Assembly (NCBI GenBank): GCA_964599475.1
Contig: CAZRFU010000016.1
Location: 17,619 to 81,618, forward strand
Origin: an uncultured Thermoanaerobaculia bacterium
Lineage (GTDB): Bacteria; Acidobacteriota; Thermoanaerobaculia; Multivoradales; CAZRFU01
Length of the DNA stretch: 64,000 nucleotides
Reading direction: 5' to 3'
Shown here: in pieces, positions 13,857-64,000 of the stretch
Layout: each line of letters opens with the position of its first letter
Numbering within the stretch: the stretch's first letter is position 1
Notes under the pieces: model-generated
The model's input: only the letters and a program-made list of their open reading frames with translations
Database searches by the model: none
What the model was told of the DNA's origin: nothing
Position numbers and translations under genes: made by a program

Positions 13857-13901
13857 ACTTCCGTGCTATTATTTGAAGGAGTTTCTCGAAGGAGAGGTCC
13901 C

Positions 13902-14369: not shown

Positions 14370-14378
14370 TCTCGGGCC

Positions 14379-15131: not shown

Positions 15132-15592
15132 TGGGGCCTCGGCGTCTCAGGCAGGTCATCGCCCTGATCGTGGCGCTGGCTGCCGCGGTGATCGGCCTCG
15201 AGGGCCGCGGATACCCCTGGTCACTGGCCGCGATCTTGGGTGCTGCCTGCGGAGCGTTCGTCTGGGTCTTGCTCGAGCGGATCGGCGAGATCGCGGCGAT
15301 GTTCGGCGATCACCACCCGCCACGGGAAGACGAGGACCGCCGCCAACAGCGCGAGATGGATCCACCCGCCGAAGACCATTCCGGCGCCGAGGGATACCAA
15401 CCAGGTCGAGAACAAGCCGAAGGTGAGGGCCAGCCGCAAGAGCTCGGGGCGCATGATGCACAGTCTAACCCCGAGGAGCCACTTCGCCGTGCGACGCTGG
15501 ATACTGACACCCCCGAGGTGCTGTTCGACCACCCGCTGATGCGAGCCGAACGGCGTCGGCTGCCGGCACCGGACGAGGAGCAGCACCGCTGA
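15131..15592 (+). CDS. Hypothetical membrane protein with two N-terminal TM helices and an acidic tail
   Basis: Joined by TGATG overlaps to the upstream gene (15129-15133) and to crcB (15590-15594). High GC3 in the TM part. It competes with the antisense ORF 15221-15586. Confidence 0.5.
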   Translation: MGPRRLRQVIALIVALAAAVIGLEGRGYPWSLAAILGAACGAFVWVLLERIGEIAAMFGDHHPPREDEDRRQQREMDPPAEDHSGAEGYQPGREQAEGEGQPQELGAHDAQSNPEEPLRRATLDTDTPEVLFDHPLMRAERRRLPAPDEEQHR

Positions 15593-47971: not shown

Positions 47972-49138
47972 ATGCGGATCCTGCACACCGCCGATTGGCA
48001 CCTCGGTCGGCGCCTCGGCCGTTTCGACCGCGACGACGATTTTCGCGCGGCGCTCGACCAGGTGGTCGAGCACGCCGACAACACCCGCGCCGATGTCGTC
48101 CTGGTTGCCGGCGATCTGCTCGAGAGCGCACGCCCCACGGTCGAAGCGCTCCGTCTAATGCTCGAGACCCTCGAGCGCCTCGCAGCGGACGGCAGACAGG
48201 TCGTCGCCATCGCGGGGAACCACGATCCCCCGGCGATGTTCGAGTTGCTCGCTCCGCTGCTGCCCTCGCGTCGCATCCACCTGGTGGGCGAGGTCAAGCG
48301 CCCCGACGACGGCGGCATCGTCGACCTCGTGGTCGGCGAGGAACGTCTCGCCGTCGGCTGTCTGCCGTTCTTGCGCGAGGGACGGGTCGTCGACTTCACC
48401 AGCGCCAGCGGCCGCTGGCACGGCGCCTACGCCGACCGCCTGCGCCGGGTCGCGGAGGCCTACTCGAAGGCCCTCGTCGACCGCGGCCCCGACGTCGTCA
48501 AGGTGCTGATGGCGCACTTCCTGATCGACGGCGTGTTGCTCGGCCGCGGCGACGCCGCCGGACAACCGCGAGGCGAGCGGCCGCTGCACCTCGGACAGGC
48601 CTGGGCAGCCACCCACCAGGCGATCCCAACCGGCCCCCACTACGTTGCCCTGGGACACATCCACGCACCTCAAAGTGCTCCCAATTCGCCGATTCCGGCC
48701 GAGTACGCCGGCTCCCTGCTCGAGCTCGACTTCGGCGAAGCAGGTGAAGCCAAGCGTGTGGTCCTGGTCGACGCCGCCCCCGGCAAACCGGTGCACCTCG
48801 AAACGCTGCCGGTTTGCGCCGGCAAGCCACTGCGGCGCGTGATCGGCAGCTGGGCCGCGATCGAGGCGCAACGCGAAGCCCTCGCCGATGTCTGGCTCGA
48901 TCTGGTGGTCAAGACCAACGGCCCGGAGCCCGGCCTGGCAGACCGAGCTCGCGAGCTCTTCCCCTTCCTGGTCAAGGTCCGAGCCGACTACGGCCGAACG
49001 CTGCCGCAGACCACGCCCCAAGCTGGGCGGAGCTGGGACGAGTTGTGGTCGGAGTGGCGCCTCGGCGAAGGTCGACCACGACCGAGCCCGGCCGAGCTCG
49101 CGGCCTTCCGCGAGTTGCTCGAGGAGGTCCGGGAGTGA
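47972..49138 (+). CDS. sbcD: Exonuclease SbcD (Mre11 family)
   Basis: MRILHTADWHLG, VLVAGDL and IAGNHD phosphoesterase motifs. Confidence 0.92.
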   Translation: MRILHTADWHLGRRLGRFDRDDDFRAALDQVVEHADNTRADVVLVAGDLLESARPTVEALRLMLETLERLAADGRQVVAIAGNHDPPAMFELLAPLLPSRRIHLVGEVKRPDDGGIVDLVVGEERLAVGCLPFLREGRVVDFTSASGRWHGAYADRLRRVAEAYSKALVDRGPDVVKVLMAHFLIDGVLLGRGDAAGQPRGERPLHLGQAWAATHQAIPTGPHYVALGHIHAPQSAPNSPIPAEYAGSLLELDFGEAGEAKRVVLVDAAPGKPVHLETLPVCAGKPLRRVIGSWAAIEAQREALADVWLDLVVKTNGPEPGLADRARELFPFLVKVRADYGRTLPQTTPQAGRSWDELWSEWRLGEGRPRPSPAELAAFRELLEEVRE

Positions 49139-51501
49139 GGCCCCTCGAGCTGGTCTTGGAAGGCTTTCGATCCTGGGGAGATCGGGCGACGTTCGATTTC
49201 CGCAATCGTCACCTGGTCGCAATCGTCGGGCCGATCGGCAGCGGCAAGAGCTCCTTGCTCGACGCCATCGCCTTCGCCCTGTACGCGCGCACGCCCCGAA
49301 TCGAGAAGGAAGTGGCCGCGCTGATCCGCCACGGCTGCGACGAGGCACGGGTCGAGCTGCTGTTTGAAGCCGGTGGCTCAGCCTACCGCGCCATTCGCGT
49401 GATCAAGCGCAAGGGCGCCAATCAACATGCGCTGTGGCGTTACGCCGACGACGCCGGAGCCGGTGAGCCGATCGAGCGGCTCGATCGTGCGCGGGAAATC
49501 GACGAGCGGCTTCACCAGGTGGTGGGGCTCGACTTCACCGCCTTCTGCCGCTCGGTACTGCTCGCCCAGAACCAGTTTGCACGGTTCCTCGAGGCGCCGC
49601 CGGCCGAACGCGACGCCGTGCTCAAGGGCCTTTTCGGCTTCGAGCGACTGGACGCGATGCGCGAGCTCGCTCGGCAACGGGAAGAACGCTGCAAGGCCGA
49701 GCTCGGCGGGCTCGAGCGCCGCCTGTCCGAGCTGAGCCAGCTGGAGCAGCAGCTTCCCGGTCTCGAAGCCCGCACCGCAGCGGCGGCAGCTCGTGTCGCC
49801 CAGTTGCGCCAGGCAGCGCCCGACTTCGAGCGGATCCAAGCCGCCCGCCAGGAAGCAAACGAGCTCGAACAGCAGACCCGCAAGGCGCGGCAGGGTCTCG
49901 CCGCGATCGAACGCGATCTCCCACCGCCGCAACAGGTCACCGACCTCGCCTCGGGCGCCGCACGGCGCCAAGCAACCCTCGACCAGACCAACCGAGCGCT
50001 GGCGCAGATCGAGGCGGCTCTGCTGCGCTGCGAAGAAGCCGAAGCGACGACCCTCACCGCCATCGCGGCCCAGACCTCGGCCCTGCACCACCTCGGCCTC
50101 GAACGCGCCGAAGACTCGCTGCGCGCTGCCATCGCCGCCGACCACGACTGCCGCGCCGCACTCACCGCGGCCGAGGAGAAGCTCGAGCGCGCGAGAGAGA
50201 CACTGCGCCGCACCGAGCACGGGCAGTACGCCGCCCTGCTGCGAGAAGACCTCGAGCACGGCCAGCCGTGCCCGGTCTGCGACCAGCCGGTGCCGGTGGT
50301 CCCGCAGGCGCGCCCGGTCCCCGAGCTGGACCATGCCCGCACCCAGAGGACGCTGGCCGAGAACGAGCGGGCCCTCCGGGCCCAGGCCCTGGAGCGCGCT
50401 CACCGCGAGGCCGCCGCCGCCGAGGCCAAACGCAACGCAGCACAGTCCGCGCTCGAGGCGTGGCAGGCCTCGAACCCCGACGTGGTAGCGAGCGCTGATC
50501 CCGATCCGCAGGCCGCCCGTGCCGCCGCTACTGCCGACCTCGAGCAGATCCGCCGCGAGCGCGCCGCTCTGCGCCTCGATCGAGACCGAGCCCGGACGCG
50601 CCTCGCCGAAGCCCAGGCTGCGGTGGCCGGCATCGAAGCCGAGGTGTCCGAGCTCGTACGGCGCCTCGAACGGCTCGCCGGCAGACTCGACCTGGACCAG
50701 CTTCCGGAAGGCCTAGTAGCAGCTCGGACGCAGCTCCACGACGAGCTCGAGCGGCGCATCGCCGGAGCCGAGGCCACCATCGCGGAAACGAGGGCGGCCA
50801 CGGCCGCCCTGGACAGCCGGATCCTGGCGTTGTGCACCGCCGTGGGTCTCGAACCGACAACCTCCTTCGACGGGGCCCTGGCCGAGGCCGAGCGCTCCCT
50901 CACCCGCCACGAGACGGAGCTCGCAGCCCTGCGAGACCGACTCCGCGAAGCCGAGCTACGGCGCGGCGAGCTGGACCACTGGCGCGAACAGTTGTCGATC
51001 TGGAGTGGCCTGGCCGAGGACCTGCGCCCTTCGCGCCTGCTTCGTCACCTGCTCGACGAAGAGCGCCGGCGTTTGGCGGCAATCGCTGCAGAGCGCTTCG
51101 AAAACCTCTCAGGGGGCCGCTACCGGTTCAGCCCGGATGGCAGCTTCGCCGTCGTCGATCTCGCCAACGCCGAGGAGCTGCGCCGCCTCGACACCCTCTC
51201 CGGTGGCGAGACCTTCCTCGCCGCGCTGGCTCTCGCCCTGGCCCTTGCCGAGATCGTCGCCGGTGGTGGCGGACGCCTCGACGCGTTTTTCCTCGACGAG
51301 GGCTTCGGCAGCCTCGACCAGGAGCACCTGCGACTGGCCCTCGACGGCATCGAGCACCTCGTCGTCGATGCCCCTGGGCGTCTGGTGCTCCTGGTCAGCC
51401 ACGTGCCCGAGGTCCAGGAGCGCTTCGACGACGTCATCTCACTCGACCGCGAACCGCTCCAGGGCGCGTCGATCATCCGCTCCGGGGCGACGCCACCGTA
51501 G
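49135..51501 (+). CDS. sbcC: Exonuclease SbcC (Rad50 family)
   Basis: GTGA overlap with sbcD. Walker A GPIGSGKSS, long coiled coils, zinc hook CPVC, LSGGETF signature and Walker B FFLDEGFG. Confidence 0.92.
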   Translation: MRPLELVLEGFRSWGDRATFDFRNRHLVAIVGPIGSGKSSLLDAIAFALYARTPRIEKEVAALIRHGCDEARVELLFEAGGSAYRAIRVIKRKGANQHALWRYADDAGAGEPIERLDRAREIDERLHQVVGLDFTAFCRSVLLAQNQFARFLEAPPAERDAVLKGLFGFERLDAMRELARQREERCKAELGGLERRLSELSQLEQQLPGLEARTAAAAARVAQLRQAAPDFERIQAARQEANELEQQTRKARQGLAAIERDLPPPQQVTDLASGAARRQATLDQTNRALAQIEAALLRCEEAEATTLTAIAAQTSALHHLGLERAEDSLRAAIAADHDCRAALTAAEEKLERARETLRRTEHGQYAALLREDLEHGQPCPVCDQPVPVVPQARPVPELDHARTQRTLAENERALRAQALERAHREAAAAEAKRNAAQSALEAWQASNPDVVASADPDPQAARAAATADLEQIRRERAALRLDRDRARTRLAEAQAAVAGIEAEVSELVRRLERLAGRLDLDQLPEGLVAARTQLHDELERRIAGAEATIAETRAATAALDSRILALCTAVGLEPTTSFDGALAEAERSLTRHETELAALRDRLREAELRRGELDHWREQLSIWSGLAEDLRPSRLLRHLLDEERRRLAAIAAERFENLSGGRYRFSPDGSFAVVDLANAEELRRLDTLSGGETFLAALALALALAEIVAGGGGRLDAFFLDEGFGSLDQEHLRLALDGIEHLVVDAPGRLVLLVSHVPEVQERFDDVISLDREPLQGASIIRSGATPP

Positions 51502-51537: not shown

Positions 51538-51948
51538 CTAGCCTTCCGGCTTCGGGTCGCCGCCGGCCTCGGAATCGCTCTCGGTGCCGTCCGCTTCGTC
51601 GACGATCTTGGGAGCGGCTCGGAAGACCGGAGTGAAACGCTCGCGGATGCCGTCGAGGGAGATGCTCTCGACGTAGTACCAATAGGCGCGGCGCGGATCG
51701 ATGGTGCGATCGACGAAGACGTAGGCCTGTGGTTCGTCGACGGTTCCGGCGCCGGGAATCGGCGTTTCGGTGAGGCGCTCGAACGGGCCTTCTTCGGCGT
51801 CGCCGCGGTAGACGTCGAAGCCGAAGTTCTCGACCTCACTCGCGGTCTTCCACTTGAGCGTGTTGGTGTACTCGGTCACCTCGTCTGCGACCGCCGAGGC
51901 GGCGCTCAGCAGCCCGAGCGCGAGCAGGGCCAGGAACTTGTTGCGCAT
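51538..51948 (-). CDS. Small secreted protein with an FN3/Ig-like repeat
   Basis: Signal peptide MRNKFLALLALGLLSAASAVA. LKWKTASEVENFGFDVYRG......YVFVD....YWYYV pattern. TGATG coupling to the C25 peptidase gene. Confidence 0.7.
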   Translation of the reverse strand: MRNKFLALLALGLLSAASAVADEVTEYTNTLKWKTASEVENFGFDVYRGDAEEGPFERLTETPIPGAGTVDEPQAYVFVDRTIDPRRAYWYYVESISLDGIRERFTPVFRAAPKIVDEADGTESDSEAGGDPKPEG

Positions 51949-54491
51949 CAGTTGCTCTCCTTGGGTGCCAGCTCGGCCACGGCCTCGGCTGGTGTTTCTC
52001 GAAGATCGAGCGCTCCGGCCGCGTCGCGCCTCGCCGCTTCGTTCCAGGCGTAGACCCCGACCCGCTCCGCCGAGATTGCCTGAGGCAGGCGCCATACGAC
52101 CGGGCTCGGATCCTGCAATTCCTCGCGCGCCAGCACATTCCCGCTCGCGTCGAAGGCTTCGAACAACACCCGCGTCCCGGGCTCTTGCCAGGGCACATCG
52201 ACGCGGATGTCGTCGGCGACGAGGGCCGGGTGCAGAGTGTCGGCCGGTCTCGCCAGCGGCAACGCGGGATCCCCGATCAGGTTGAACATCATCACGAAGG
52301 CCTTGTTGCGCGAGAACTCAGCCTTGGTCACCCGCAGGGCTTCGCCCAACGAGTCTTCCTCGAGCAGGCCATTCATCAGTCTCTCGCTGACCCGTTGCGA
52401 CGGCGAGTAGCGCCAGGAGGCCCCGAAGACTGCAATCGCGCCTCGATCCGGAAGTCGCAGGAAGCGCTCCCCGATCGAATCCGCGGTCGGGTGGTCAAAC
52501 GGCGCGGAGTAGCACGTCATGCTCAGGATCACGGGCAGCTTGTCGTTGGGCGCGAGCGCATCGAGGTCGTCGAGGGTGAAGAGATCGTGGTTCTTGCGCG
52601 GGTCGGGCGGCCCCGTGCGCCAGATGAAACGCCCGCCGTGGCCGACGAAGTGCACCATCAGCTGCCCCTCGTCGATCGCCTGGCGAATTGCGCCCTGGTG
52701 CAACTCGTTGGAGGCTTCCTCGGGCTTGGGGTAGATCTTCGACCCGCCGAGGCCGCGCTCGGCCATCGCGCCGGCAAGGTTGTCGGTCTGCCGCTGGAAC
52801 CCAGCCTCCTCGTTGACCAGCCACAAGACATGGCGGCGCCACGGCCCGACCGGCGGCCCGGCGAGATAACCACGGATCTTCGAGACGATCCCCCGCACCT
52901 CGTCCGGCTCGCTCACCGGCAGGCGACCGATCGCCATCTCCGGACTGCCGTCCTCGTCGAAGTCGACGAAGTAGTGGTCGGATGCGGCGTGGCCGTCGGA
53001 ACTTGCCCAGCGGTAGGTCGGGATCAGATTGCGATGGCCTAGGGTTGGTCGCCGCGGGTGTGGGGTCGCGGGAATCTTGTTGAAGCCCTCGCGCTCGAAT
53101 GTGGCCCAGGTCATGTCGGCGTAGCGCTGGTCGTCGAGCTCCTCGTTGCGAGCGTCCCAGCTCGCATCACCCACCAGCAGCACGAAGCGTGGCACGGGCG
53201 CAACCCAGGATGTCGCGGTGTGGTGCAGGAACGACCGAATCGCTTTGGGATCGACGACGCCGAAGGAGAACTCATCGAAGATCTCCTCGACATCGACGAC
53301 CTCGACACTCAGCCCGCGACGCCGATGGACATCGGCGAGGTGTTCGGTCTCGAGCCGCAGGCTCGGATGGGTGATCATCAGGTAGTCGGCCTGACGCGAA
53401 CGGCTGCGCAGATCCGAAGGCTGATCGAGCTCGACCACCGCGGGGCGGTGGAAGGCCCCGTCACGAACCACCCAGACCGAGGCTTCCGGGGTGCGAAACG
53501 TCACACCGAACTGCTCGCGACGCGGCACGCCCGCGGCACGCTGCGTGGCCCCGAAGACGGCGATCCGCTCCGCCTCCCGCACCATGAAGTCGAGCGATCG
53601 GCAGCTCTCGTCCGCGCGAGCAAAAAGCTCGCGCTGGGCGTATCGCACCGAGCGATCGTGCGGGTAGCTCAGCTCGATCCAGTTCAGCAGCGAGACGTCG
53701 ACGATCGGGTTGTCCTTCTCGTCCATGCGGCGGGGCGAGGTCACGCTGAGCTTCACCTGCTCCGGCAGCTCGGCCGCCGGGCGGCGCAGCACGAACTCGG
53801 CCAGCTCCTGACCCTCGAACTCGACTCGGGCCTGCTCGGCACCGTCGAGGGCAGCCGTGACGATGTGAGTCGGTTCCCCCTCCGCCAACCGCGGAGTCGA
53901 CCAGCCCCGCAGCTGACCGGTGATCGTCAGGGGCTGAGCAGACGAGCGATCGAGATCTGCCAGCTCGAGCGGGAGCTCGAACTGATCCTGGGGGAAAAAC
54001 GACACCCGCGACCACATCCACGGCTCGATGTCGCCGAGGCGCGGAGCAAACCGCAGGAGCAACCGGTCCTCCTCGAGATGCTGACGCACCTCGAGCGCAC
54101 AGGACTTGCCCGATGCTTTGGCGGGTACGTCGACGTAGCGCAACCCGCCACCACCGAGCCGGACCCAATAGACCGCCCACGCAGTCTCCTCGGCAAACCA
54201 GCTGCGCTCACCCGGCAGGTGCCGACCGACCAGCTCGATCGCATCACCCGGGCCAAAGAACCCGTCCTCGCCGCCGCGAACGTGGATCGGCACCGGCTCG
54301 CCCAGACTGTCGACGCCGAGCTCGTCGGTGGGGATCGGTTGGCCTTGCCACCCCGCCGCGGTCAGATCCTCGAAGCTCACGGCGTACACCCCGGACTCGC
54401 GCAGCAGCACCTTGAACGAGGGTGTCGCGGCGATGGCGACAGCGGCACTGACCCACGAGGTGACGGCGAAAGCGGCGACGGCGAGACGCAT
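51948..54491 (-). CDS. Peptidase C25 (gingipain-like) family protein
   Basis: Signal peptide. DYLMITHP...FVLLVGDASWD, a catalytic-type His in HFVGHGG and Cys in ILSMTCYSAPF. Confidence 0.8.
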   Translation of the reverse strand: MRLAVAAFAVTSWVSAAVAIAATPSFKVLLRESGVYAVSFEDLTAAGWQGQPIPTDELGVDSLGEPVPIHVRGGEDGFFGPGDAIELVGRHLPGERSWFAEETAWAVYWVRLGGGGLRYVDVPAKASGKSCALEVRQHLEEDRLLLRFAPRLGDIEPWMWSRVSFFPQDQFELPLELADLDRSSAQPLTITGQLRGWSTPRLAEGEPTHIVTAALDGAEQARVEFEGQELAEFVLRRPAAELPEQVKLSVTSPRRMDEKDNPIVDVSLLNWIELSYPHDRSVRYAQRELFARADESCRSLDFMVREAERIAVFGATQRAAGVPRREQFGVTFRTPEASVWVVRDGAFHRPAVVELDQPSDLRSRSRQADYLMITHPSLRLETEHLADVHRRRGLSVEVVDVEEIFDEFSFGVVDPKAIRSFLHHTATSWVAPVPRFVLLVGDASWDARNEELDDQRYADMTWATFEREGFNKIPATPHPRRPTLGHRNLIPTYRWASSDGHAASDHYFVDFDEDGSPEMAIGRLPVSEPDEVRGIVSKIRGYLAGPPVGPWRRHVLWLVNEEAGFQRQTDNLAGAMAERGLGGSKIYPKPEEASNELHQGAIRQAIDEGQLMVHFVGHGGRFIWRTGPPDPRKNHDLFTLDDLDALAPNDKLPVILSMTCYSAPFDHPTADSIGERFLRLPDRGAIAVFGASWRYSPSQRVSERLMNGLLEEDSLGEALRVTKAEFSRNKAFVMMFNLIGDPALPLARPADTLHPALVADDIRVDVPWQEPGTRVLFEAFDASGNVLAREELQDPSPVVWRLPQAISAERVGVYAWNEAARRDAAGALDLRETPAEAVAELAPKESN

Positions 54492-54574: not shown

Positions 54575-57500
54575 TCACACCCACTCGGCGCACAGCAGTT
54601 CCGCCTGGGCCAGCACCGTCTTGACCGCTTGGTCCTGGAGATCCGGCGGGTAGCCCCAACGATTGAGGATGCGTTTGACCATCACCCGCATGCGTGCGCG
54701 GGCGCTTTCGCGGACGGTCCAGTCGATGGTGGCGCTCTTCCTCACCTGGGTGATCAGCTCGGCGGCGATCGCGCGCAACTTCTCGTCACCCATCGCCTGC
54801 ACCGCGCTGTCGTTGGTGGCGAGCGCGTCGTAGAAGGCGATCTCGTCGTCGCTGAGACCGAGCGCTTCGCCGCGTTTCCCGGCGGCTTCGAGGTCCTTGG
54901 CGAGCTTGATCAGCTCTTCGATGACTTCCATCGTCGAGATCGCGCGGTTGTGGTACTTGTTCAGCGTTTCCTTGAGCTTTTCGCTGAAGACCTGGCTCTC
55001 GACCAAGTTGCGCTTGCCGCGCACCTTGAGCTCGTCTTCGAGCAGCTTGCGCAGGAGCTCGGCGGCGACGTTCTTGTGCTGCAGGCCGCGGACCTCGGCG
55101 AGGAACTGGTCGCTCAAGATCGAGATGTCGGGTTTCTGCAGACCGGCGGCGGTGAACACGTCGATCACTTGGCCGTCGGTGGTGATCGCCTTGCTCACCA
55201 ACTGGCGGATCGCCGCGTCGATCTGTTCGGGGGTCTTGCCGCTCCCTGAGCCACCCTTGGCGAAGGCCGCTTGCAGCGCCTGGAAGAACGACACGTCGTC
55301 GCGGATCGTCGTCGCCTCGTCGGTTGCCGCCGCGAGCGCGAAGGCACGCGAGAGCTCCATCACCACCCTGGCCCACCGTTGTTGACCGTCCGGCTGCGCC
55401 AGGATGTGCTCGCGGCCGGCGGGAATCAACGCGAGGCGTTCGCTCGGCGAGCCGCTGATCCAGCGGCTCCAATCGAAGCCGTTCAGCATCGAGCAGGCGA
55501 CCTCGTGCTTCTCGAGCATCACCGCAATCGCGGCAGCCGTGTCGAAGGTCGGATCACCCTTGCCGCCGCTTTCGGTGTAGGTCGCCAGTGCCCGTTTGAG
55601 CTGATCCGCGAGCCCGAGGTAGTCGACCACCAGGCCGCCGGGCTTGTCGCGAAACACCCGATTCACTCGTGCGATCGCCTGCATCAGGCCGTGGCCGTGC
55701 ATCGGCTTGTCGACGTACATGGTGTGCAGACACGGCGCATCGAAGCCGGTCAGCCACATGTCGCGCACGATCACGATGCGGAAGGGATCTTTGGCGTCTT
55801 TGAAGCGCGTCGCCATCCGCCGCCGACGGTCTTTGCTGCGGATGTGCGGTTGCCACGCAGGGCCGTCGTCGGCGCTGCCGGTCATCACCACCTTGACCAC
55901 ACAGCTGCGGTCCTTTTCGGCCTCGGCATCGTCGCCGACACTCGCCCATTCGGGGCGAAGCGCGATCAGCGCGTCGTAGAGGTCGACGCAGATGCGCCGG
56001 CTCATGCACACCACCATCGCCTTGCCGTCCATCGCCTCGAGGCGCTTCTCGAAGTGCGCCACCAAGTCCGCCGCGATCAACGCGATGCGTTTCGGGTCGC
56101 CGACCAAGGCTTCGAGCGCCGCCCACTTGCTCTTGAGCTTCTCGCGGTGGGTCGGCTCTTCGCCCTCGGTGATCTCGTCAAACTCGTCGTCGAGCTTGGG
56201 GACCTCGGCGGCGTTGAGGCTGAGCTTCGAGATCCGGCTTTCGTAGTAGATCGGCACCGTCGCCTGATCCGCCACCGCTCGCTGGATGTCGTAGATCGAG
56301 ATGTAGTCGCCGAACACCACCCGCGTGTTGGCGTCGGCGAGCTCGATCGGGGTGCCGGTGAAGCCGATGTAGCAGGCGTTCGGCAGCGCGTCGCGCAGGT
56401 TGCTCGCAAAGCCGTACGACAACGCGCCGGTCTTGGGGTTGACCTTGGCGCCGAAGCCGTATTGGCTGCGGTGTGCTTCATCGGCGATCACCACGATGTT
56501 CTGCCGCGCACTCAGCACCGGCATGGCTTCGCCCTGCTCCGGCAGGAACTTGTGAATGGTGGTGAAGACCACGCCGCCGCTCGCGACCGTCAGGAGCTCG
56601 CGCAGCTGCTCACGGCTGCCGGCCTGCACCGGCGTCTGCCCGAGCACGTCGGCGCAGCGCTGGAACTGGCCGAAGAGCTGGTCGTCGAGGTCGTTGCGGT
56701 CGGTCAACACCACCAGCGTCGGGTTCTGCATCACCGGGTGGCGTACCACTCGTGCGGCGAAGAAGAGCATCGAAAAGCTCTTGCCGCTGCCCTGGGTGTG
56801 CCACACCACCCCGGCGCGGCGGTCGCCCGGCTGGCCGCCGCGCATCCGCCCGGCCCAATAGGTGCCCGGCGTTTCCTTCGCCTCGTCGGCTCGCGCCAAC
56901 CCACTCGCCCGCACCGTCTCCTCGACCGCGGCGTTGACCGCGTGGAACTGGTGGTAGCCGGCGATGATCTTGTGCAGCGCCCCCGAGTCCGGATCCTCCT
57001 CGAACACGATGAAGTGCTGCAGCAGCTCGAGGAAACGCCGCTGGTCGAACACTCCGCGGATCAACACCTCGAGCTCGAGCGCATTCGCCGGCGCGTCGCC
57101 CTCGCCGTCGACCGTGCGCCAGACCTTGAACCACTCCTGGTTCGCCGTGAGCGACCCCATCCGCGCCTGCAGTCCGTCACTCACCACCAACACCGCGTTG
57201 TACTGCAACAGCGACGGAATTTCGGCCTTGTAGGTCTGCACCTGCGCGTAGGCGCTCCAGATCGTCGCGTTTTCATCCGCCGCGTTCTTGAGCTCGATCA
57301 CGCCGAGCGGCAGCCCGTTGACGAACACCACCAGATCCGGCCGGCGGCTGTGCTGGCCCTCGATCACCGTGAACTGGTTCACCACCAGCCAGTCGTTGGC
57401 GGCGGAATCGGTGAAGTCGACCAGCCGCACGTGGTCGCCGGCGATCGACCCGTCCAGGCGGCGGTATTCCACCTGCACCCCGTTGCGCAGCAGCTTGTGG

Positions 57501-57763
57501 AAGGCACGGTTGGTCTGGATCAGCGACGGCGTGGCGATCCGCACCACCCGGCGCAGGGCATCCTCGCGAGCGTCCGCAGGGATCGTTGGGTTGAGCCGCG
57601 CAATAGCGTCCCGCAGCCGGCCGGCGAGCAAGACGTCGCCAAACGAATCCCTCTCCGCCGCCGGTTCGCCCGGCGCCAGGTGTGGCCCGTGGCCGACGGC
57701 GTAGCCGAGACCAGCAAACCAGTCGAGGGCGGCGGATTCGACGATGGATTCGTCGAGACTCAT
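54575..57763 (-). CDS. hsdR: Type I restriction enzyme R subunit
   Basis: PD-(D/E)xK nuclease region ([19 protein letters not shown]), SF2 motor motifs ([12 protein letters not shown]-like IADEAHRSQ) and a DUF3387-like C-terminus. 1062 aa. Confidence 0.95.
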
Positions 57764-57766
57764 CGG

Positions 57767-58219
57767 CTAGTCCCACACATACCGCTCGTCGAACTCGATG
57801 CCATACTTCTTCAGGAGGCGGCGGTACTCCTCTTGGAACGAGATCTTGCGATGATGCTGCGCCTGGCCGGCGAGGTATTTCTCGAGAGCAGCGCGATGGG
57901 AAGGACTGAGCGAAAACGCTCCGTAGCCGCTCTGCCAGTGAAAGTCCTGCGAGCCTGGGGCCTTGGATTTGAGCCACTTCGTCGATCCGGTCTTGATGAC
58001 CTGCACCAGGTCGGCCAGCGCCACCGTTCTCGGGTGCGCGACGAGGAGGTGGATGTGGTCCGCCACCGATCCCGCCGCCAGCAGCGTGCCCTGGTGGTTC
58101 AGGATGATGCCGCCGATGTAAGCGTGGAGCTCGTCGCGGATGTCGTCAGCCAGGCGCGGTTCGCGGTTCTTGGTCGAAAAGACCAAATGGACGAGGATCT
58201 GCGCGAGGGACTGTGGCAT
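57767..58219 (-). mobile_element. Y1 HUH transposase of the IS200 / REP-associated (RAYT) type
   Basis: ATG 58219 (MPQSLAQILVHLVFSTKNREP), HUH motif HIHLLV and a Tyr-containing WQSGYGAFS. Flanked by REP-like hairpin elements. Its stop lies 3 nt from the hsdR ATG. Confidence 0.85.
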
Positions 58220-58300
58220 GGCAAGCAAGCGCTCCGGCGTTTTCGGCCGAGTCTATCCGTCCCGACGGGCGCGGGTCCGCAAGTTGGCGATGGTCGCGCT

Positions 58301-58533
58301 CCGGGGCCCCAACGGGGCCCAATGAGATAGCCCAGGGCAACGCCCTGGGTAGGCAAGCCCCCGTCCCTTCCCAAGCCCTGAAAGGGCGAAACATCCCTCC
58401 GCGACGATCCTGCGCCGCAACCGCCCCGGAGTTCCGCCCTTTCAGGGCTCGGAACCAATGGGGGGTGCCGCGGTACCCAGGGTGTCGCTTCGCTCTACCC
58501 TGGGCTATCTCATCTCGCCCCTTTGGGGCTTCG
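58301..58533. repeat. Head-to-head pair of REP-like elements
   Basis: The forward unit (58301-58397) contains GGCCCCAACGGGGCCCAATGAGATAGCCCAGGGCAACGCCCTGGGT...GCCCTGAAAGGGCGAAAC. The inverted variant unit is at 58428-58533. Each has three GC-rich hairpins. Confidence 0.85.
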
Positions 58534-58687
58534 GATCGGCAGCCCGGCACCGGCGGGGCACCAGTGGATCGCCCCAACGACCGGCCCGCGATGCAGCACC
58601 CCGCCGTCGGGTCCCCGTGGCCCCAACCGGCACAGGTGGATCGCCCCAACGCCCGCCAGTGGCACGGCACCGCACGGATGCTCGGCT

Positions 58688-58784
58688 CCGGGGCCCCAAC
58701 GGGGCCCAATGAGATAGCCCAGGGCAACGCCCTGGGTTGGGCAAGCCGGTCCCATTCCCGAGCCCTGAAAGGGCGAAACATCCC
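58688..58784. repeat. REP-like element (forward unit, second copy)
   Basis: Nearly identical to 58301-58397 and 60300-60396. Shares a 25-nt 5' extension (GGCACCGCACGGATGCTCGGCTCCG) with the 60.3-kb copy. Confidence 0.85.
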
Positions 58785-60125: not shown

Positions 60126-60273
60126 GGTCGCGGGTTGCCTTTATGCAGCCAAGTGGTTTGTCGCCAGAAACATACATTGGCCTCCGGGTGGCAGGCTGCG
60201 CTACCGCCTAAACAAGCTCACTCAGGCCTTGCGTCGCTCGTGCAGGTCTTTGACGCCTTGTTGGAGGGCAGGC

Positions 60274-60508
60274 TCGGCACCGCACGGATGCTCGGCTCCG
60301 TGGCCCCAACGGGGCCCAATGAGATAGCCCAGGGCAACGCCCTGGGTGTCGGGCAAGCCCACCGACTCCCCGAGCCCTGAAAGGGCGAAACCTCCCGCGA
60401 CGGTTCGCCCCGCCCCCTCGGAATTCCGCCCGTTCAGGGCTCCGGACCTCCAGGGGTGCCGCTGTACCCAGGGTGTCGCTTCGCTCTACCCTGGGCTGTC
60501 TCATCTCG
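60274..60508. repeat. Head-to-head pair of REP-like elements (third locus)
   Basis: Forward unit at 60300-60396 with the 5' extension from 60274. The inverted variant unit at 60420-60508 is truncated where it abuts the hsdR stub. Confidence 0.85.
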
Positions 60509-60515
60509 TGAGCTG

Positions 60516-60903
60516 GGTTCACCACCAACCAGTCGTTGGCGGCGGGATTGGTGAAGTCGACCAGCCGCACGTGGTCGCCGGCGATCGACCCGTCCGGCCG
60601 GCGGTATTCCACCTCCACGCCGTTGCGCAGCAGCTTGTGGAAGGCACGGTTGGTCTGGATCAGCGACGGCGTACCGATCCGCACCACTCGGCGCAGGGCA
60701 TCCTCGCGAGCGTCCGCAGGGATCGTTGGGTTGAGCCGCGCAATAGCGTCCCGCAGCCGGCCGACGAGCAACACCTCGCTGAACGAATCGCGCTCCGCCT
60801 CCGGTTCGCCGGGGGCGAGGTGAGGCCCGTGGGCGACGGCGTAGCCGAGACCGGCAAACCAGTCGAGGGCGGCGGATTCGACGATGGATTCGTTCAAGCT
60901 CAT
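60516..60903 (-). pseudogene. hsdR: 5' stub of an hsdR gene (first ~129 codons)
   Basis: Aligns gap-free with 57376-57763 at a constant offset of 3140 nt, with about 93% identity by manual count. The frame leaves hsdR sequence after DWLVVN and reads into the REP element. Confidence 0.85.
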
Positions 60904-62786
60904 TCGGCGGTTGACGTCTGGATGGGGCCGATCATCGTGGCTACCTGACCAACACCCTCGTCCGCCACGGCAGGAACGGCTGCTGGTGGCTCCGCGGCAA
61001 AGAACTTCTCCACCTCCTTGACTAGAGGTGCAAACCCGACAAAGGCATCATTCAGCGCCTGGCCGGAGAGCCCGCACACGTACCTTGCTAGCTTCCCTTT
61101 CGCGAAGGGCTTGAGTTGTCTAGTCAACAGCAAGAGTTCGTCCTTGCTAGCGTTCTTCGACCGACAGTAGTTCTCGAACGTGTCATCAAGTGCGGTGAAC
61201 TTGTTCAAGGCAACGGCTTCGGATCGCTCGATGAGCCACCCTTTCTGCTCGGCGTACCTCCAGACCTCGATGGGGAAGAGTTCTTCCAACGCTATCGGCA
61301 GCAGGAGGCCTTTTCTTGCTATTGCCACCAGAGCATGGGGCTTGTACGCCCCGAGGAGCAAGGCCTTGATTCTATGCCTTCCATTTTCGCGGAGGAACGC
61401 TTGATTCGAACTCTTGACACGGTCGTTGTTCACCACCGCGCTTTTTGCCTCGCGGCCCGCATCATCGTCGTCGAATAAGCCTAGTGCAAGATGCGAAGTT
61501 CGGCTGTGTGCCCAAGAAATGAGCATGTCCTTAACCCAGGGGGCTCCGGCCTGGTCTTCGCTTCGTACAGTCGCCCGTTCCAGGACAGTGGGGGCCAACA
61601 GCTCCAGGGCCCTCGTGAAGACCCGAGCATCGGATGTACCTTCGACGAAGAGAGCAGGGCTAGCGATGTGGTTGGTCCTTTGAAGGATCGCGAGCGCTCG
61701 CTCCCGACTCTCGACGGCCTCGGCAATCATCGGGGCAACGACCGGCATGAGGCCGACGTGTTCGTCAAGTTCATGCATCTCGTTTGAGGCCAGCGTTTTG
61801 ACCTGAGTGGCACCGTCCTCGCCACTGCCAGAGACGAGGAAGGGAGTCACTGTAGGTGAGGATCTGGCCAGCGAATAGAAAGCTGGCGAGTGCGTGGTAG
61901 CGAAAATCTGGATCTCCTTGCTGTAGGCGACGCACTCGCTCGCAAGTTCGGCCGCCTTGAGCATTTCAAGATTGTTCTCAGGCTCCTCGAAGCCCCAAAT
62001 CGTCTGGACCTGCGGACTACCCTTGACTCGCCGTGTTCGCGACTGCTGGGCTAGGTAGTGCAGGAGGATCGGAATGTGGCGCGCCTTGACTCCGTCGCCC
62101 CGGAGGCCCAGCGGCACTCCGAGCGGGCCGTCCGATTGGAACTCAAGCCGCGAGAACAGCTCGCGAAGGTCGGCGGGTAGCTGGATCGTGCTCTTGATGC
62201 CAAGCTTGGCTTCGATCTCAGCAAGGGCGGCCTGCGTCTTCTCGTTGATGGTGGAGGTGAAGCCGCCAGAAGCCGCGCGAATGTCCGCGGCGACCGTGCC
62301 GACGAGGACATCGTGAAGGCCCCGAAGTAGTGTCTGGAAGTAGTCGCTGCCTTTCACGGCAGGTACGTACTCGAACCGCACGGAGTTGAGGAATGCCGGA
62401 ACCTTTGATCGCGGCTTGAGTTGGCTCCCGTCGAGGTGTCGAAGCTCGTTTCCAGGCTCATGGTGCCCGCCAGAACGCCACACCTTTCGCCAGAGGATCT
62501 CGGACGCGTCGTAGGAGGGGGGGAGCCTCATAGTTAGAGTTACACGAACCTCTTTGGCCTTGTTCGACGGGGTCCTCGCGTGTTTGCTGAAGTCGCGGTC
62601 AAACACGAAGGGGCTCGCGGCGGCAGTGCCGTTGAAGAACAAGTCGAGGGCACGAAGGATGTTCGATTTGCCGACATCGTTCAGGCCTACGAATAGATTG
62701 AGCCGGTTGGTCCGGAAGTCCTCGTTGAGGATGGAGCGGTAGTTCTGAATCCGGACAGACGTGATCTGCATTCCGTCGACCGCCAT
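60900..62786 (-). CDS. OLD-family-like ABC ATPase + Toprim nuclease embedded in the Type I R-M operon
   Basis: ATG 62786 lies 5 nt after the hsdS TAA, with GAGGAG upstream. Walker A GLNDVGKSN, Walker B IWGFEEPENNLE, TTHSP, and a Toprim-like FVEGTSD plus FDDDDAG. Its TGA overlaps the ATG of the hsdR stub. Lower GC than the flanks. Confidence 0.75.
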   Translation of the reverse strand: MAVDGMQITSVRIQNYRSILNEDFRTNRLNLFVGLNDVGKSNILRALDLFFNGTAAASPFVFDRDFSKHARTPSNKAKEVRVTLTMRLPPSYDASEILWRKVWRSGGHHEPGNELRHLDGSQLKPRSKVPAFLNSVRFEYVPAVKGSDYFQTLLRGLHDVLVGTVAADIRAASGGFTSTINEKTQAALAEIEAKLGIKSTIQLPADLRELFSRLEFQSDGPLGVPLGLRGDGVKARHIPILLHYLAQQSRTRRVKGSPQVQTIWGFEEPENNLEMLKAAELASECVAYSKEIQIFATTHSPAFYSLARSSPTVTPFLVSGSGEDGATQVKTLASNEMHELDEHVGLMPVVAPMIAEAVESRERALAILQRTNHIASPALFVEGTSDARVFTRALELLAPTVLERATVRSEDQAGAPWVKDMLISWAHSRTSHLALGLFDDDDAGREAKSAVVNNDRVKSSNQAFLRENGRHRIKALLLGAYKPHALVAIARKGLLLPIALEELFPIEVWRYAEQKGWLIERSEAVALNKFTALDDTFENYCRSKNASKDELLLLTRQLKPFAKGKLARYVCGLSGQALNDAFVGFAPLVKEVEKFFAAEPPAAVPAVADEGVGQVATMIGPIQTSTAE

Positions 62787-62791
62787 TCTGG

Positions 62792-64000
62792 TTACTCCTC
62801 GAAGAAGGCTCTTCCACCAAGTAGTTCTGGCAACAAGGCTTCGCGCTGTCCGGCGAGAAGGTGACCTTCGGCCGCACGGCTCTCTGCCATGGCCAACAGG
62901 GGGCTTACCCTGTCGGTGAATGCGTGGGCCAAAGCGGTCGGTGGAATCAGGCACGGCAGGGCGAAGGCATCTTCGGGCCTAACGCGCTGATGGCTCCCCG
63001 TCGTGCCAGTCACGAGTGAGGCATAGGCGGTTGAGAACGGTTGGCTTGTGAAGAGCGAATAGAGAAACTCACTCGAAGCGCTAGTGGCTGGCTCGACCAC
63101 GATGAATTCGGTCGAGCAGACGGACGGGCGAGAACCGTGGAGCTTGGCAGGGAACCACACGCGAGGGATGTGAGGGTTGAGCTTGGACAACAGCACGGCG
63201 CCTTGGGGAACCGCGAACTTGTTGCTTCGGATGGCTGCCCCAAGCTCTACCTTCGGTTTCCGGCCATCGTCGAAGGCAGGGAGGCTGTAGTGGTCGAACT
63301 GCTCGCCCGGGCACAGGCCTGGGTTCAACGAGGCCTTTCCAACGGTCGCCAACTCGGAAAGGGGGCCGGTTCTCCACCCGCGTGGAATCCGCCCGAGGTC
63401 GGAGTCTTGGAAGGAGTCGGGGAAGAGGGCGGCGGTTTCGGGGTCGAGGCCGGGGGGGTGGCGGCCGTCGAGTTTGGCGCGGACGGGGTCGAAGTCGACG
63501 AACCAGCTCTGGAAGAGCGCCCGCGCCATGGCCTCGAGGGTGGCGTTCATGCGGCGGTTGAGCTCGATCTTGTCGTCGAGGGCGCCGAGGGTCTCCGCGA
63601 TCAGCCTCTGATGACCGATGGGCGGCACAGTGATCTTTAGTCGGCGTTGGTCGGTAAGGCTCAGGTAGGGGGCCATGTCCGTTGAGGCCTTCATCCCGGA
63701 GAGCTGCTCGCTGAACTCGCGCCCGCAGGCCCAGTAGCGCAGGAACCCGCTGTCCAGACGATCAAGGTCGCGACTTCGCCAGTAGCTCAGGTGGGGCGAA
63801 TAGACGAAGGGAGGCATTCGTGGAGTAACGAACGAGGTTCGACCAGTGCTGTTGCCTTTCGTCGTGATGATCGTGTCGCCGACGCGGGACATCTTCGGTC
63901 GCACCTTTTCGAAGAGGTGCTCGTGGAAATGCTCAACCCCAGAGAAGTCGATGTGGCTGTCAGTGACGTGGCCGGCACGAAGGAAGATTGGACCGTTGCC
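62792..64000 (-). CDS. hsdS: Type I restriction enzyme S (specificity) subunit, 5' end off-window
   Basis: The frame is open to base 64000. Central conserved region PPIGHQRLIAETLGALDDKIELNRRMNATLEAMARALFQSWFVDFDPV and a matching C-terminal conserved helix, separating two target-recognition domains. Confidence 0.9.
   Translation of the reverse strand, partial: GNGPIFLRAGHVTDSHIDFSGVEHFHEHLFEKVRPKMSRVGDTIITTKGNSTGRTSFVTPRMPPFVYSPHLSYWRSRDLDRLDSGFLRYWACGREFSEQLSGMKASTDMAPYLSLTDQRRLKITVPPIGHQRLIAETLGALDDKIELNRRMNATLEAMARALFQSWFVDFDPVRAKLDGRHPPGLDPETAALFPDSFQDSDLGRIPRGWRTGPLSELATVGKASLNPGLCPGEQFDHYSLPAFDDGRKPKVELGAAIRSNKFAVPQGAVLLSKLNPHIPRVWFPAKLHGSRPSVCSTEFIVVEPATSASSEFLYSLFTSQPFSTAYASLVTGTTGSHQRVRPEDAFALPCLIPPTALAHAFTDRVSPLLAMAESRAAEGHLLAGQREALLPELLGGRAFFEE

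Follow-up and report, generated by a model that had tools for sequence, protein, structure and literature searches.

A putative OLD-family ATPase-Toprim nuclease encoded behind hsdS in a Thermoanaerobaculia Type I restriction-modification locus, a candidate second-line phage defence

The 64,000-nucleotide window from an uncultured Thermoanaerobaculia bacterium carries a guest gene, here called X, within a Type I restriction-modification (R-M) locus; all features below lie on the minus strand. The 3' part of hsdS, encoding the Type I specificity subunit (62792–64000; Pfam Methylase_S, E = 9e-9), ends with a TAA at 62794–62792, and its 5' end lies outside the window because the gene crosses the edge at 64000. 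Separated from this TAA by a 5-nt gap, X (60900–62786) runs as a 628-aa ORF from an ATG at 62786 to a TGA at 60902–60900. A Shine-Dalgarno-like GAGGAG (62795–62800) within the last hsdS codons is spaced 8 nt from the ATG, and the X stop overlaps the start of a truncated hsdR copy in an ATGA (60900–60903). An earlier sequence-only reading had described this hsdS stop, the ORF and the overlap, and each of its coordinates and motifs was found as given. In this window of 68% GC, long spurious ORFs are frequent; one of 1019 aa lies antisense to hsdR. By sequence comparison, X is a real gene and not a chance ORF, because it has 353 homologues in the database (the 120 best listed have E-values between 0 and 1e-93) and the motifs described below coincide with columns that do not vary in the alignment. 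Translation may begin at ATG 62786 or at ATG 62771 (Met6), with which the start of most homologues aligns; 62786 is favoured because GAGGAG lies 8 nt upstream and the same 5-nt gap recurs in the L001 homologue, 63% identical to X. The GC content of X is 59%, foreign to the window, suggesting horizontal acquisition, which we count in favour of the interpretation preferred below.

The gene coupled to X on its downstream side is a truncated hsdR copy, and the earlier description of X as hard-wired into the operon needs qualifying to that extent. The stub (60507–60903; Pfam HSDR_N, 3e-17) makes up codons 1 to ~134 of a 231-aa ORF, the remainder of which, to 60208, is repeat-derived. A 402-bp stretch (60507–60908) matches the 5' end of the intact hsdR (57368–57767) with 92.3% identity. 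This intact gene (54575–57763; 1062 aa; HSDR_N, SWI2_SNF2, ResIII, T1R_D3-like and T1RH-like_C) lies 3.1 kb downstream of X. The locus is evidently rearranged, since the downstream partner of X is an hsdR stub; REP/RAYT and other DNA have been inserted, and other defence cargo, such as TIR_2 and deaminase genes, adjoins X.

The N-terminal part of X has the features of an ABC-type ATPase, as the sequence-only reading had proposed. The protein matches AAA_15 at 71.3 bits (cutoff 32.1), and also AAA_21 and AAA_23. These matches include the N-lobe (residues 1–145; 62352–62786), in which G34, N36, D37, G39, K40 and S41 are invariant and the Walker A motif FVGLNDVGKSN occupies residues 32–42 (62661–62693; K40 at 62667–62669). 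A helical insertion (residues ~146–225; 62112–62351) occupies the place of the dimerisation domain of OLD proteins in the AF2 model and in full-length Foldseek alignments to TsOLD and GajA. Its helices (147–183 and 185–195; pLDDT 66–82) are the least confident part of the model, and by analogy with described OLD proteins it probably mediates oligomerisation (PMC7049728). The C-lobe (residues 226–365; 61692–62111) contains the second AAA_15 stretch and the invariant residues G230, D231, G232, R236, W264, G265, E267, E268, P269, E270, N271, E274, T297, H299 and S300. It carries a signature-like GLRGDGVKARH (residues 227–237; LRGDG at 62076–62108), the Walker B/D-loop QTIWGFEEPENNLE (residues 261–274; IWGFEEPENNLE at 61965–62006) and the H-loop ATTHSP (residues 296–301; TTHSP at 61884–61901). 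In the homologue alignment, GxxxxGKS, WGxEEPEN and TxHS are invariant. Profile matches in the PDB are to GajA, TsOLD and Eco8 OLD; matches to RecF, Rad50 and SMC are weak and lie in the P-loop region.

The C-terminal part is predicted to carry a complete two-metal nuclease site. The Toprim core (residues 375–497; 61296–61664) includes LFVEGTSD (residues 379–386) with E382 (61641–61643) and D386 (61629–61631), and GLFDDDDAG (residues 436–444) with the DxD pair D439/D441 (61464–61472). It is followed by a helical domain (residues 498–600; 60987–61295), delimited by AF2, Foldseek and invariance, which has a pLDDT of 93–98 and contains the invariant E501 (61284–61286) and K563 (61098–61100); its region aligns over ~245 columns with the Class 2 OLD C-terminal regions 6njv and 6nk8. 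A tail (residues 601–628; 60903–60986) is non-conserved, absent from homologues and of low confidence (pLDDT <50 for 608–628). Across 60 homologues of 32–63% identity, each ATPase and Toprim motif is either invariant or conserved to 90% or more. Conservation of the putative catalytic Glu/Asp had been singled out beforehand as a test that could refute the reading; E382, D386 and E501 proved invariant, and D439 and D441 are kept in at least 90% of sequences. In the model, metal site A would comprise E382, D439 and D441, and metal site B D386 and E501. We propose E501 as a metal-B ligand and K563 as the counterpart of BpOLD K562, a general acid or stabiliser, both by inferred residue-to-residue mapping and not by superposition. 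In an HMM alignment, E382/D386 coincide with the catalytic residues E374/D378 of Eco2 (PMC12916289), and Ala499 stands where BpOLD and TsOLD have a Thr/Ser that helps hold metal B. Neither the direct search of X with Pfam OLD-like_TOPRIM nor that of its C-terminal half alone with Pfam and PADLOC Toprim models gave a match, so the Toprim call rests on structure prediction, residue conservation and the weak matches of relatives, 11 of 31 of which match OLD-like_TOPRIM (best E 4e-4). The Toprim-helical module also occurs behind other N-termini, of REC-like, STAND NTPase and further ABC ATPase types, and we count this fusion to varied partners, an effector character, in favour of the preferred interpretation. 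The ~200 aa in which the earlier reading recognised nothing are not a new module. They correspond to the usual second half of the nuclease domain in OLD proteins, because the ~190 aa after the DxD hold the metal-B glutamate and the helical domain with its conserved lysine, as found in Class 2 OLD and retron Eco2 (PMC6755086).

The full-length AF2 model (mean pLDDT 86.7) has the three-part OLD fold, an ATPase with a helical insert followed by Toprim. Its best PDB matches in Foldseek are full-length OLD proteins, namely GajA (8e-17), TsOLD (1e-15) and Eco8 OLD (9e-14); 540–730 columns align with OLD structures (E 8e-17 to 4e-12), with differing domain orientation and high rmsd. Profile matches, conserved motifs and these structural matches thus agree with the initial identification of an ABC-ATPase + Toprim protein of the OLD kind. 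ATPase-Toprim fusion is standard in OLD Classes 1–3, and the earlier suggestion that the fused architecture and the C-terminal region may be an undescribed variant is not supported. On the modelled fold, X is an uncharacterised protein within a known family, the OLD ATP-dependent Toprim nucleases, with predicted nuclease and ATPase activity. None of the full-length PADLOC 2.0.0 models matches it. The family is patchily distributed (465 matches among 185,579 species genomes), with sizes mostly of ~580–615 aa among the 120 best homologues listed.

X resembles, and departs from, each described OLD class. Like Class 1 OLD (P2 Old, TsOLD, Vibrio cholerae Vc OLD and E. coli YbjD), it is a single gene that has the E...D / DxD / E two-metal set; it adjoins hsdS and the truncated hsdR copy, and no UvrD-like helicase, RT/ncRNA or separate Toprim gene lies beside it. 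Many relatives among the 120 best homologues listed match DUF2813, the YbjD family. However, the C-terminal helical domain of X, with its conserved lysine, has no equivalent in TsOLD (PMC7049728), and family sizes lie at or above the Class 1 range of 500–600 aa (PMC12392090). Class 1 genes are also described as not near other defence genes (PMC10568477), whereas X itself is, and ~30% of its family lies inside or beside R-M operons. The Toprim and helical-domain layout is shared with Class 2 OLD/GajA (BpOLD C-terminal region, 6NK8), and counterparts of E400, E404, D455, D457, E508 and K562 are proposed in X, but sequence identity is ~15% and Thr506 is replaced by Ala. No gajB (UvrD/PcrA/Rep-like) lies beside X in the window, where the only helicase nearby is hsdR, and none recurs among related loci. 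As for the Class 3 retrons, no RT or ncRNA lies beside X, hsdS and the hsdR stub flanking it directly and leaving no room; the score for NCBIfam retron_eff_Eco8 is 35.9 bits, below its cutoff of 250.

The closest sequence relative of the nuclease module is the RT-Toprim of retron Eco2 (Ec67; type I-C). The PADLOC RT-Toprim_I-C model is matched in 9 of 31 relatives (E 3e-7), and the Eco2 motifs PTIxxEGKTD and MEDLFP align with X. The sensor or regulator of Eco2 is a reverse transcriptase with msDNA, whereas the sensor-side domain of X is an ABC ATPase; Eco2 cleaves the acceptor stems of tRNA once the msDNA has decayed (PMC12916289).

The location of X recalls PrrC of the ecoprrI Type IC locus, a latent nuclease tied to the Type I enzyme (PMC12707154). 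Both occupy the hsdM-hsdS-X-hsdR slot, as the sequence-only reading had pointed out, and both join an ABC-type ATPase N-domain to a nuclease C-domain. The C-domain of PrrC is an anticodon nuclease, whereas that of X is a predicted metal-dependent Toprim fold. PrrC is not among the best 25 of the 95 PADLOC families matched by X, and no PrrC-type Pfam match was found. PrrC is reported to occur almost exclusively within Type I loci (Payne et al.; bioRxiv 10.1101/2024.01.29.577857), in contrast to only ~22% of the X family. PARIS, RloA/RloB and AbiLi/AbiLii also combine an ABC ATPase with a Toprim-type nuclease, which in X form one chain, and rlo genes lie within Campylobacter Type I loci according to work cited in a passage of PMC11411939. 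One of 31 relatives matches RloB (0.0016) and four of 31 match AbiLii (0.0026); X as an RloA/RloB or AbiLi/AbiLii pair is ruled out by its single chain and these few weak matches. Type I R-M operons are known hosts of embedded defence genes (bioRxiv 10.1101/2024.01.29.577857; PMC11411939). HEC-04, an ABC ATPase-Toprim fusion embedded in the Hma immune operon, depends for defence on its Walker A and E/D/D residues (bioRxiv 10.1101/2024.01.29.577857). The host of HEC-04 is Hma, whereas X and its relatives occur in Type I/III R-M at a fixed position after the specificity gene. The HEC-04 model of PADLOC-DB v2.0.0 matches neither full-length X, X without the P-loop region, nor the 31 C-terminal segments.

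Relatives of X are repeatedly embedded in R-M operons. Among the 81 related loci surveyed, 18 lie within Type I operons on the same strand, spanning at least six clades and two gene orders, and in 11 of these 18 X directly follows hsdS. This adjacency is kept in both the M-S-X-R and R-S-X-M orders in at least five clades. Three further loci have the Type III order mod-X-res, bringing Type I or Type III operons to ~26% of loci. Of 14 related loci, 12 have X starting -11 to +27 nt from the stop of the specificity gene. The earlier reading had named a lack of enrichment beside Type I R-M genes as refuting; homologues instead recur strongly within Type I operons, in the PrrC-like slot behind hsdS. 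Across the 81 loci, no partner gene other than R-M is recurrent. R-M is not required for the family to exist, since ~70% of relatives lack any R-M gene within 10 kb, which we count towards autonomy. The strict position of X after the specificity gene, in both Type I orders and in Type III, nevertheless exceeds the need of simple co-expression and hints at functional coupling.

One reading, in line with the earlier suggestion that X could monitor the R-M complex, makes this coupling central. By analogy with PrrC and PARIS (PMC11464382, PMC12707154), X would stay latent while the Type I/III enzyme is intact and, freed by an anti-restriction protein, would cut tRNA or DNA and abort the infection. 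An Ocr/ArdA-type DNA mimic or a Stp-like peptide may act as the trigger, by disabling the R-M complex or by binding the ATPase of X. PARIS senses Ocr, an anti-restriction protein. The prrC slot just after hsdS, the tight or overlapping junctions maintained across both gene orders, the same logic in Type III and AriA as the best PADLOC match of the ATPase (71 bits) are consistent with such a role, as is the cleavage of tRNA by the proteins nearest in sequence to the Toprim module (PMC12916289). We consider it possible yet doubtful. The relatives without nearby R-M genes weigh against it, the family's occurrence with three different R-M types speaks against docking on any one particular complex, and TgvAB, BrxU and the tested HECs work independently of their host system (PMC11411939; bioRxiv 10.1101/2024.01.29.577857). 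A more speculative extension, to which we give somewhat less credence still, is a fifth, context-defined OLD class of R-M guardians placed after hsdS (Type I) or mod (Type III), which would sense loss or mimic-block of the recognition complex and then turn an Eco2-like Toprim against tRNA. The diverged hsd stubs after X in several genomes would mark a recombination hotspot loading defence cargo, and the guardian would be made in step with the recognition subunit.

Two other readings carry far less weight. That X is a single-chain AriA-AriB (OLD Class 4), sensing Ocr and cleaving tRNA-Lys, is the least probable of all, even though AriA is the top PADLOC match, the context is R-M and single-gene ariAB fusions are known (PMC9122126, PMC11464382). 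The AriA match is limited to generic P-loop and Walker B stretches. The C-terminal half of X has no DUF4435 match even at E up to 5, with 2 of 31 relatives at E 0.018, and the AriAB PADLOC model, matched by 2 of 31 relatives (0.009), is no longer matched once the query lacks the P-loop region. PARIS membership is refuted, the Toprim domain not being DUF4435 and the AriA/AriAB matches being weak or P-loop-bound. Marginally less improbable is a RecF/SbcC-like housekeeping or repair nuclease, or an accessory or inert passenger in a decaying R-M locus. The weak RecF, Rad50 and SMC matches, the truncated hsdR copy and the REP/RAYT and other insertions fit this reading; the patchy distribution, the foreign GC content, the occurrence inside R-M operons beside TIR_2 and deaminase cargo, the intact catalytic residues and the hsdR still present in intact form all oppose it.

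By analogy with characterised systems, the best explanation, with a probability of about 0.6, is that X is an autonomous second-layer defence nuclease co-expressed with R-M, its embedding not an obligatory partnership. X would share a transcript with hsdS, to which its translation is probably coupled, and would consequently be produced whenever the specificity and methylase subunits are. The ATPase would restrain the nuclease until an infection cue, upon which the Toprim site would cut nucleic acid and halt phage replication, possibly at a cost to cell growth. DNA nicking or cleavage appears slightly likelier than tRNA cleavage, at about 55:45, because P2 Old, TsOLD, VcOLD, GajA and Eco8 OLD act on DNA. 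Counted against this explanation is that the nearest sequence relatives of the nuclease module, the retron Eco2 RT-Toprims, are tRNA cutters and do not cut DNA (PMC12916289). The missing Toprim model matches for X itself, Ala499, the strict position behind the specificity gene and the rearranged state of the locus also weigh against it. A validated ATPase-Toprim fusion within another immune operon (HEC-04) and a systematic survey of genes embedded in Type I loci are already published (bioRxiv 10.1101/2024.01.29.577857). On these analogies, X is a good, not unprecedented, candidate for second-line phage defence, whose embedding in R-M would provide co-expression and co-transfer with the first-line system.

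A single X chain, the product of the 628-aa guest gene between hsdS and the truncated 5' copy of hsdR (60900..62786, minus strand), combines a full ABC ATPase with a full two-metal Toprim site of the OLD type. The length of the X ORF is no proof of a gene by itself because long ORFs occur by chance in the 68% GC window, including a 1019-aa ORF antisense to hsdR. X is nevertheless a real gene, as it has 353 homologues (E-values between 0 and 1e-93 for the best 120 listed) and its motifs occupy invariant columns of a 60-sequence alignment (32–63% identity). All six motifs named in the sequence-only reading were found, at residues 32–42, 227–237, 261–274, 296–301, 379–386, and 436–444, and minus-strand reading confirmed its coordinates for hsdS, X, and the ATGA overlap. 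The hsdS gene, which matches Pfam Methylase_S and whose 5' end lies outside the window, terminates in TTC GAG GAG TAA (stop 62794–62792), and the 628 codons of X begin at ATG 62786, 5 nt past this stop. Most homologues start at the equivalent of Met6, corresponding to an alternative ATG at 62771. We favor 62786 on the basis of the spacing of the Shine-Dalgarno sequence (GAGGAG, 62800–62795, 8 nt before this ATG) and of the identical 5-nt gap at locus L001, whose homologue is 63% identical to X. X is operonic behind hsdS and probably translationally coupled. The TGA of X (60902–60900) shares the sequence ATGA (60903–60900) with the ATG of the next ORF; the overlap noted earlier is present, and the coupled gene is an hsdR stub, not hsdR (intact copy at 54575..57763, minus strand). 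With 59% GC, X lies below hsdS (63%), hsdR (66%), and the window (68%). A scan of 57.5–64 kb returned no promoter-like sites and terminators at chance level, a result without diagnostic value at a genomic GC of 68%.

The ATPase half matches all three Pfam families put forward for it, namely AAA_15 (71 bits; cutoff 32), AAA_21, and AAA_23, and the X family profile retrieved GajA, Thermus OLD, and the retron Eco8 OLD from the PDB at 5e-11 to 3e-6. No NCBIfam model came close to its own cutoff. The top PADLOC match was AriA (71 bits); HEC-01A, Old, ATPase-Toprim_I-B, and many GajA models ranked next, and every one of these matches is confined to the P-loop and Walker B stretches.

The Toprim assignment of the nuclease half required AF2 models and structure comparison as well as an alignment of the family, because direct scans were empty: the C-terminal 280 aa matched nothing in Pfam at E-values up to 5, and the C-terminal 280, 263, and 199 aa scanned directly in Pfam and PADLOC gave no match. 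The AF2 model of whole X has a mean pLDDT of 86.7, with values of 93–98 across nearly all of residues 380–590 and one ten-residue block at 83. Its best PDB matches by Foldseek are full-length OLD proteins, namely GajA (8e-17), Thermus scotoductus OLD (TsOLD; 1e-15), and Eco8 OLD (9e-14), and each alignment spans 540–730 columns; therefore, both halves of X align to OLD. The C-terminal structure was also predicted separately (residues 366–628, from 31 C-terminal segments; pLDDT 93), and its top Foldseek matches are the C-terminal regions of Class 2 OLDs (6njv, 5e-3; 6nk8, 2e-2; ~245 columns each). The profile matches to OLD-type Toprim, DUF4435, and RloB sought on the basis of the sequence-only reading were absent from the C-terminal half of the window protein and appeared weakly in relatives: among the 31 segments, Pfam returned OLD-like_TOPRIM for 11 (weak), DUF3226 for 5, Toprim_2 for 4, DUF4435 for 2, and RloB for 1. 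PADLOC retron RT-Toprim_I-C models were matched by 9 of the 31 (best E 3e-7). The sequence profile of the C-terminal alignment gave marginal PDB matches only (Eco2, 0.05; 1t6t, 0.15; ribosomal uL3 as noise).

Conservation in this region supports an OLD-type catalytic site. In the profile search, PALFVEGTSD of X aligns with PTIITEGKTD of Eco2, placing E382 and D386 on the catalytic E374 and D378 (PMC12916289), and LEELFP aligns with MEDLFP. Using published maps (PMC6755086, PMC7049728), we propose a correspondence with the Class 2 Burkholderia pseudomallei OLD (BpOLD) in which E382, D439, and D441 would bind metal A (BpOLD E400, D455, and D457), D386 and E501 would bind metal B (E404 and E508), and K563 would be the lysine of the helical domain (K562). 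Within the X family, E382, D386, E501, and K563 are invariant, and at least 90% of sequences retain D439 and D441; the assignments of E501 and K563 were inferred from their order and spacing, the secondary structure, and the matching fold. X has Ala499 at the position of T506 in BpOLD and S478 in TsOLD. The ~200 aa in which the sequence-only reading recognized nothing are, according to the models, Foldseek, and conservation, two parts of an OLD-type nuclease region, the metal-B helix and the helical domain, and the last ~25 residues alone are unconserved and disordered.

The nuclease module of X also ends architectures other than ABC-ATPase fusions of ~590 aa. The C-terminal profile retrieved 922 of 1.84 billion representative proteins at E-values up to 1e-3 and 188 at up to 1e-30. 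These architectures include a consistent class of ~365 aa with a receiver-like N-terminus (Response_reg, sub-threshold; P0151, P0161, P0170, P0176, P0187, P0193, and P0206), longer AAA_15/AAA_21 proteins of 680–930 aa (P0183, P0204, and P0223 at 830–930 aa), a STAND NTPase of 1250 aa (P0185), and proteins of 240–290 aa that are either solo or fragments. In the proteins named here, the Toprim-plus-helical module scored E 1e-35 to 1e-52. Pfam scans of the window protein and of two solo proteins (248 and 258 aa) returned no model for it. Such spread across N-termini is typical of a defense effector swapped among sensors.

Embedding of the X family in restriction-modification (R-M) operons is recurrent. 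A scan of 185,579 genomes, one per species, yielded 465 relatives of X; the 80 top-ranking loci, together with metagenome loci, gave 81 non-redundant loci, in which the hsdS-X-hsdR synteny suggested by the sequence-only reading was surveyed. An initial tblastn pass that used Hsd proteins of the window as queries under-counted the Type I loci at seven; clustering of neighboring ORFs and HsdS, HsdM, and HsdR HMMs built from the clusters raised this to 18 of 81 and exposed the R-S-X-M order. In all 18, the Type I genes share the strand of X, and X lies inside the hsd cluster or at its border. The orders are M-S-X-(cargo)-R (L001, L044, L055, and the window, whose hsdM would lie beyond its edge), X-R on truncated contigs (L007 and L071), R-(..)-S-X-(..)-M (L017, L018, L022, L026, L028, L029, L060, and L062), R-M-(..)-S-X (L048), and M-S-R-X (L067 and L078). 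The gene immediately upstream of X is hsdS in 11 loci plus the window. Of 14 junctions between a specificity gene and X, 12 have a stop-to-start spacing of –11 to +27 nt. At three further loci, relatives ~40% identical to X are embedded in Type III operons as mod-X-res (L012, 8739–14772; L030, 11–5879; L023, truncated), where the Type III-like mod is an N6_N4_Mtase, res combines ResIII and RE_endonuc, and the 8–11 nt gap after mod mirrors the hsdS-X arrangement. Others adjoin Type IIG-like enzymes (L010 and L011) or a large N6_N4 methylase (L020). In a neighbor-joining tree, R-M-embedded members are spread over six or more clades, in which they intermingle with members outside R-M operons. The hsdM-hsdS-X order is present in close homologues; within the window's clade, P0022 lies in M-S-X-R, P0007 is followed by hsdR after 18 nt, and P0010 lies in M-S-X followed by TIR_2 and deaminase/HATPase cargo and then R. 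An R-M locus was not visible around P0004 (64% identical) or the more distant P0025 (44%). In about 70% of the 81 loci, no R-M gene lies within 10 kb, and no other partner recurs. Most of the family is chromosomal: the plasmid collection yielded six matches, the one example inspected being a solo copy without R-M on a Sphingobium conjugative plasmid, annotated only as "AAA family ATPase," and the phage collection yielded a single partial match, covering 46% of the query at 26% identity, in an unannotated 5-kb record. The survey thus describes a bimodal gene, either solo or in an R-M operon and then nearly always behind the specificity gene.

The junction after X bears a recurrent signature suggestive of insertion. 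In the window, the hsdR stub (60507–60908) shares 92.3% identity with the start of intact hsdR (57368–57767), with homology beginning 5 nt upstream of the ATG. A recent tandem duplication was rejected as its origin, as the copies are only 92% identical. Three REP-like repeats of ~110–230 bp (60271–60508, 58661–58784, and 58289–58517; 84–92% identical) follow, one of which makes the 3' part of the stub ORF. Between the stub and an IS200-like, RAYT-like Y1 transposase gene (58228–57767, minus strand; Pfam Y1_Tnp, E 3.5e-21), which ends 3 nt before the hsdR ATG, lies a 430-aa DUF2142 membrane-protein gene (60125–58833, minus strand; weak glycosyltransferase-like PMT_2 match), unrelated to R-M and presumably inserted cargo. 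The transposase and repeats have the look of a RAYT/REP system. The order of X, a diverged copy of the 5' end of the following hsd gene directly behind it, cargo, and the intact gene recurs in several unrelated genomes with 78–92% identity between stub and intact gene: a 128-bp hsdR stub in L001 (11834–11961 versus 15375–15502; 87.5%), a 325-bp hsdM stub in L017 (11778–12102 versus 14340–14664; 78%), a 176-bp stub in L021 (11789–11964 versus 13540–13715; 88%), a 58-bp stub in L022 (11785–11842 versus 13914–13971; 90%), and a 58-aa HsdR stub in L007 (86% to window HsdR). This pattern suggests that the junction is a hotspot at which foreign cargo enters by homeologous, Campbell-like recombination.

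Several further features were observed around these loci. The stub ORF of L001 is a chimera of the hsdR 5' end and a piece resembling the hsdS 3' end. The X-hsdR gap there (11833–15261; also in L002 and L003) holds a 356-aa TIR_2 protein and a 499-aa dCMP-deaminase/HATPase_c_4 protein, a small defense island embedded in the Type I operon. In L022 (3281–8579), hsdR is in three fragments, broken by a ~500-aa ORF, and an ORF of the same family follows the hsdR stub of L007 (2052–3539); this ORF could be an hsdR-targeting mobile element. Beyond hsdR, the window encodes an 895-aa SbcC/Rad50-like ABC ATPase (48814–51498, plus strand; AAA_23, SMC_N, and SbcC_Walker_B) and an 847-aa gingipain-like Peptidase_C25 protein (51948–54491, minus strand).

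To our knowledge, no class within the widespread OLD defense family is less well understood than the single-gene nucleases, with in vivo phenotypes for P2 Old, Vc OLD, and YbjD only and triggers mostly unknown. X is a Class 1 OLD by the context-based scheme, being a single gene without GajB, RT, or a split Toprim gene (PMC12392090), whereas its C-terminal region is built like those of Class 2 OLDs and Eco2. Class 1 genes have been generalized as not lying near other defense genes (PMC10568477), and X breaks this rule. Some relatives are already named "ATP-dependent nuclease/endonuclease of OLD family" in databases, and OLD nucleases, experimentally validated HEC-04-type embedded ATPase-Toprim fusions, Type I-embedded defense genes, and R-M guardians have all been published. 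Among known systems, fused PARIS was rejected for X, which matches no DUF4435 model and has a lower AriB fold score; PrrC was ruled out by its different nuclease domain, and the RloA/RloB pair was also ruled out. Neither HEC-04, any PDC model, nor any other PADLOC 2.0.0 model gave a full-length match.

X is probably an autonomous effector, an independent second layer of defense, to which we assign a probability of about 0.6. In this view, embedding would bring X shared expression and joint transfer with R-M. By analogy with characterized OLD proteins, X would oligomerize via its helical insert, its ATPase would gate its nuclease, and infection would activate it to cleave nucleic acid and block the phage (PMC7049728, PMC12392090, PMC10568477). 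For the target, we lean slightly toward DNA over tRNA (about 55:45), and both are possible. Single-chain OLDs studied to date nick or degrade DNA; AriB cuts tRNA. Eco2, the closest sequence relative of the X Toprim module, also cuts tRNA (PMC12916289). X might instead stay latent while R-M is intact and act as its guardian, like PrrC or PARIS (PMC12707154, PMC11464382), and the constancy of the slot behind the specificity gene, which holds for both Type I gene orders and for Type III operons, hints at such a role. The majority of the family lives without R-M, however, and other tested embedded systems work independently of their host operon (PMC11411939; bioRxiv 10.1101/2024.01.29.577857), and we consider guardianship unlikely. 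It is more doubtful still that the X clade is an OLD nuclease class of its own, made up of R-M guardians whose Eco2-like module cuts tRNA.

None of the Pfam, NCBIfam, and PADLOC 2.0.0 models run captures the X clade as a family; therefore, defense annotation pipelines built on such models would pass over it. If X is just an autonomous nuclease hitch-hiking in R-M operons, it is another case of the published "guilt by embedding" pattern. The slot of the clade behind Type I and Type III specificity genes offers a concrete, testable setting in which an OLD ATPase might sense anti-restriction, and such sensing would tie the ideas developed for PrrC and PARIS to the OLD family proper.
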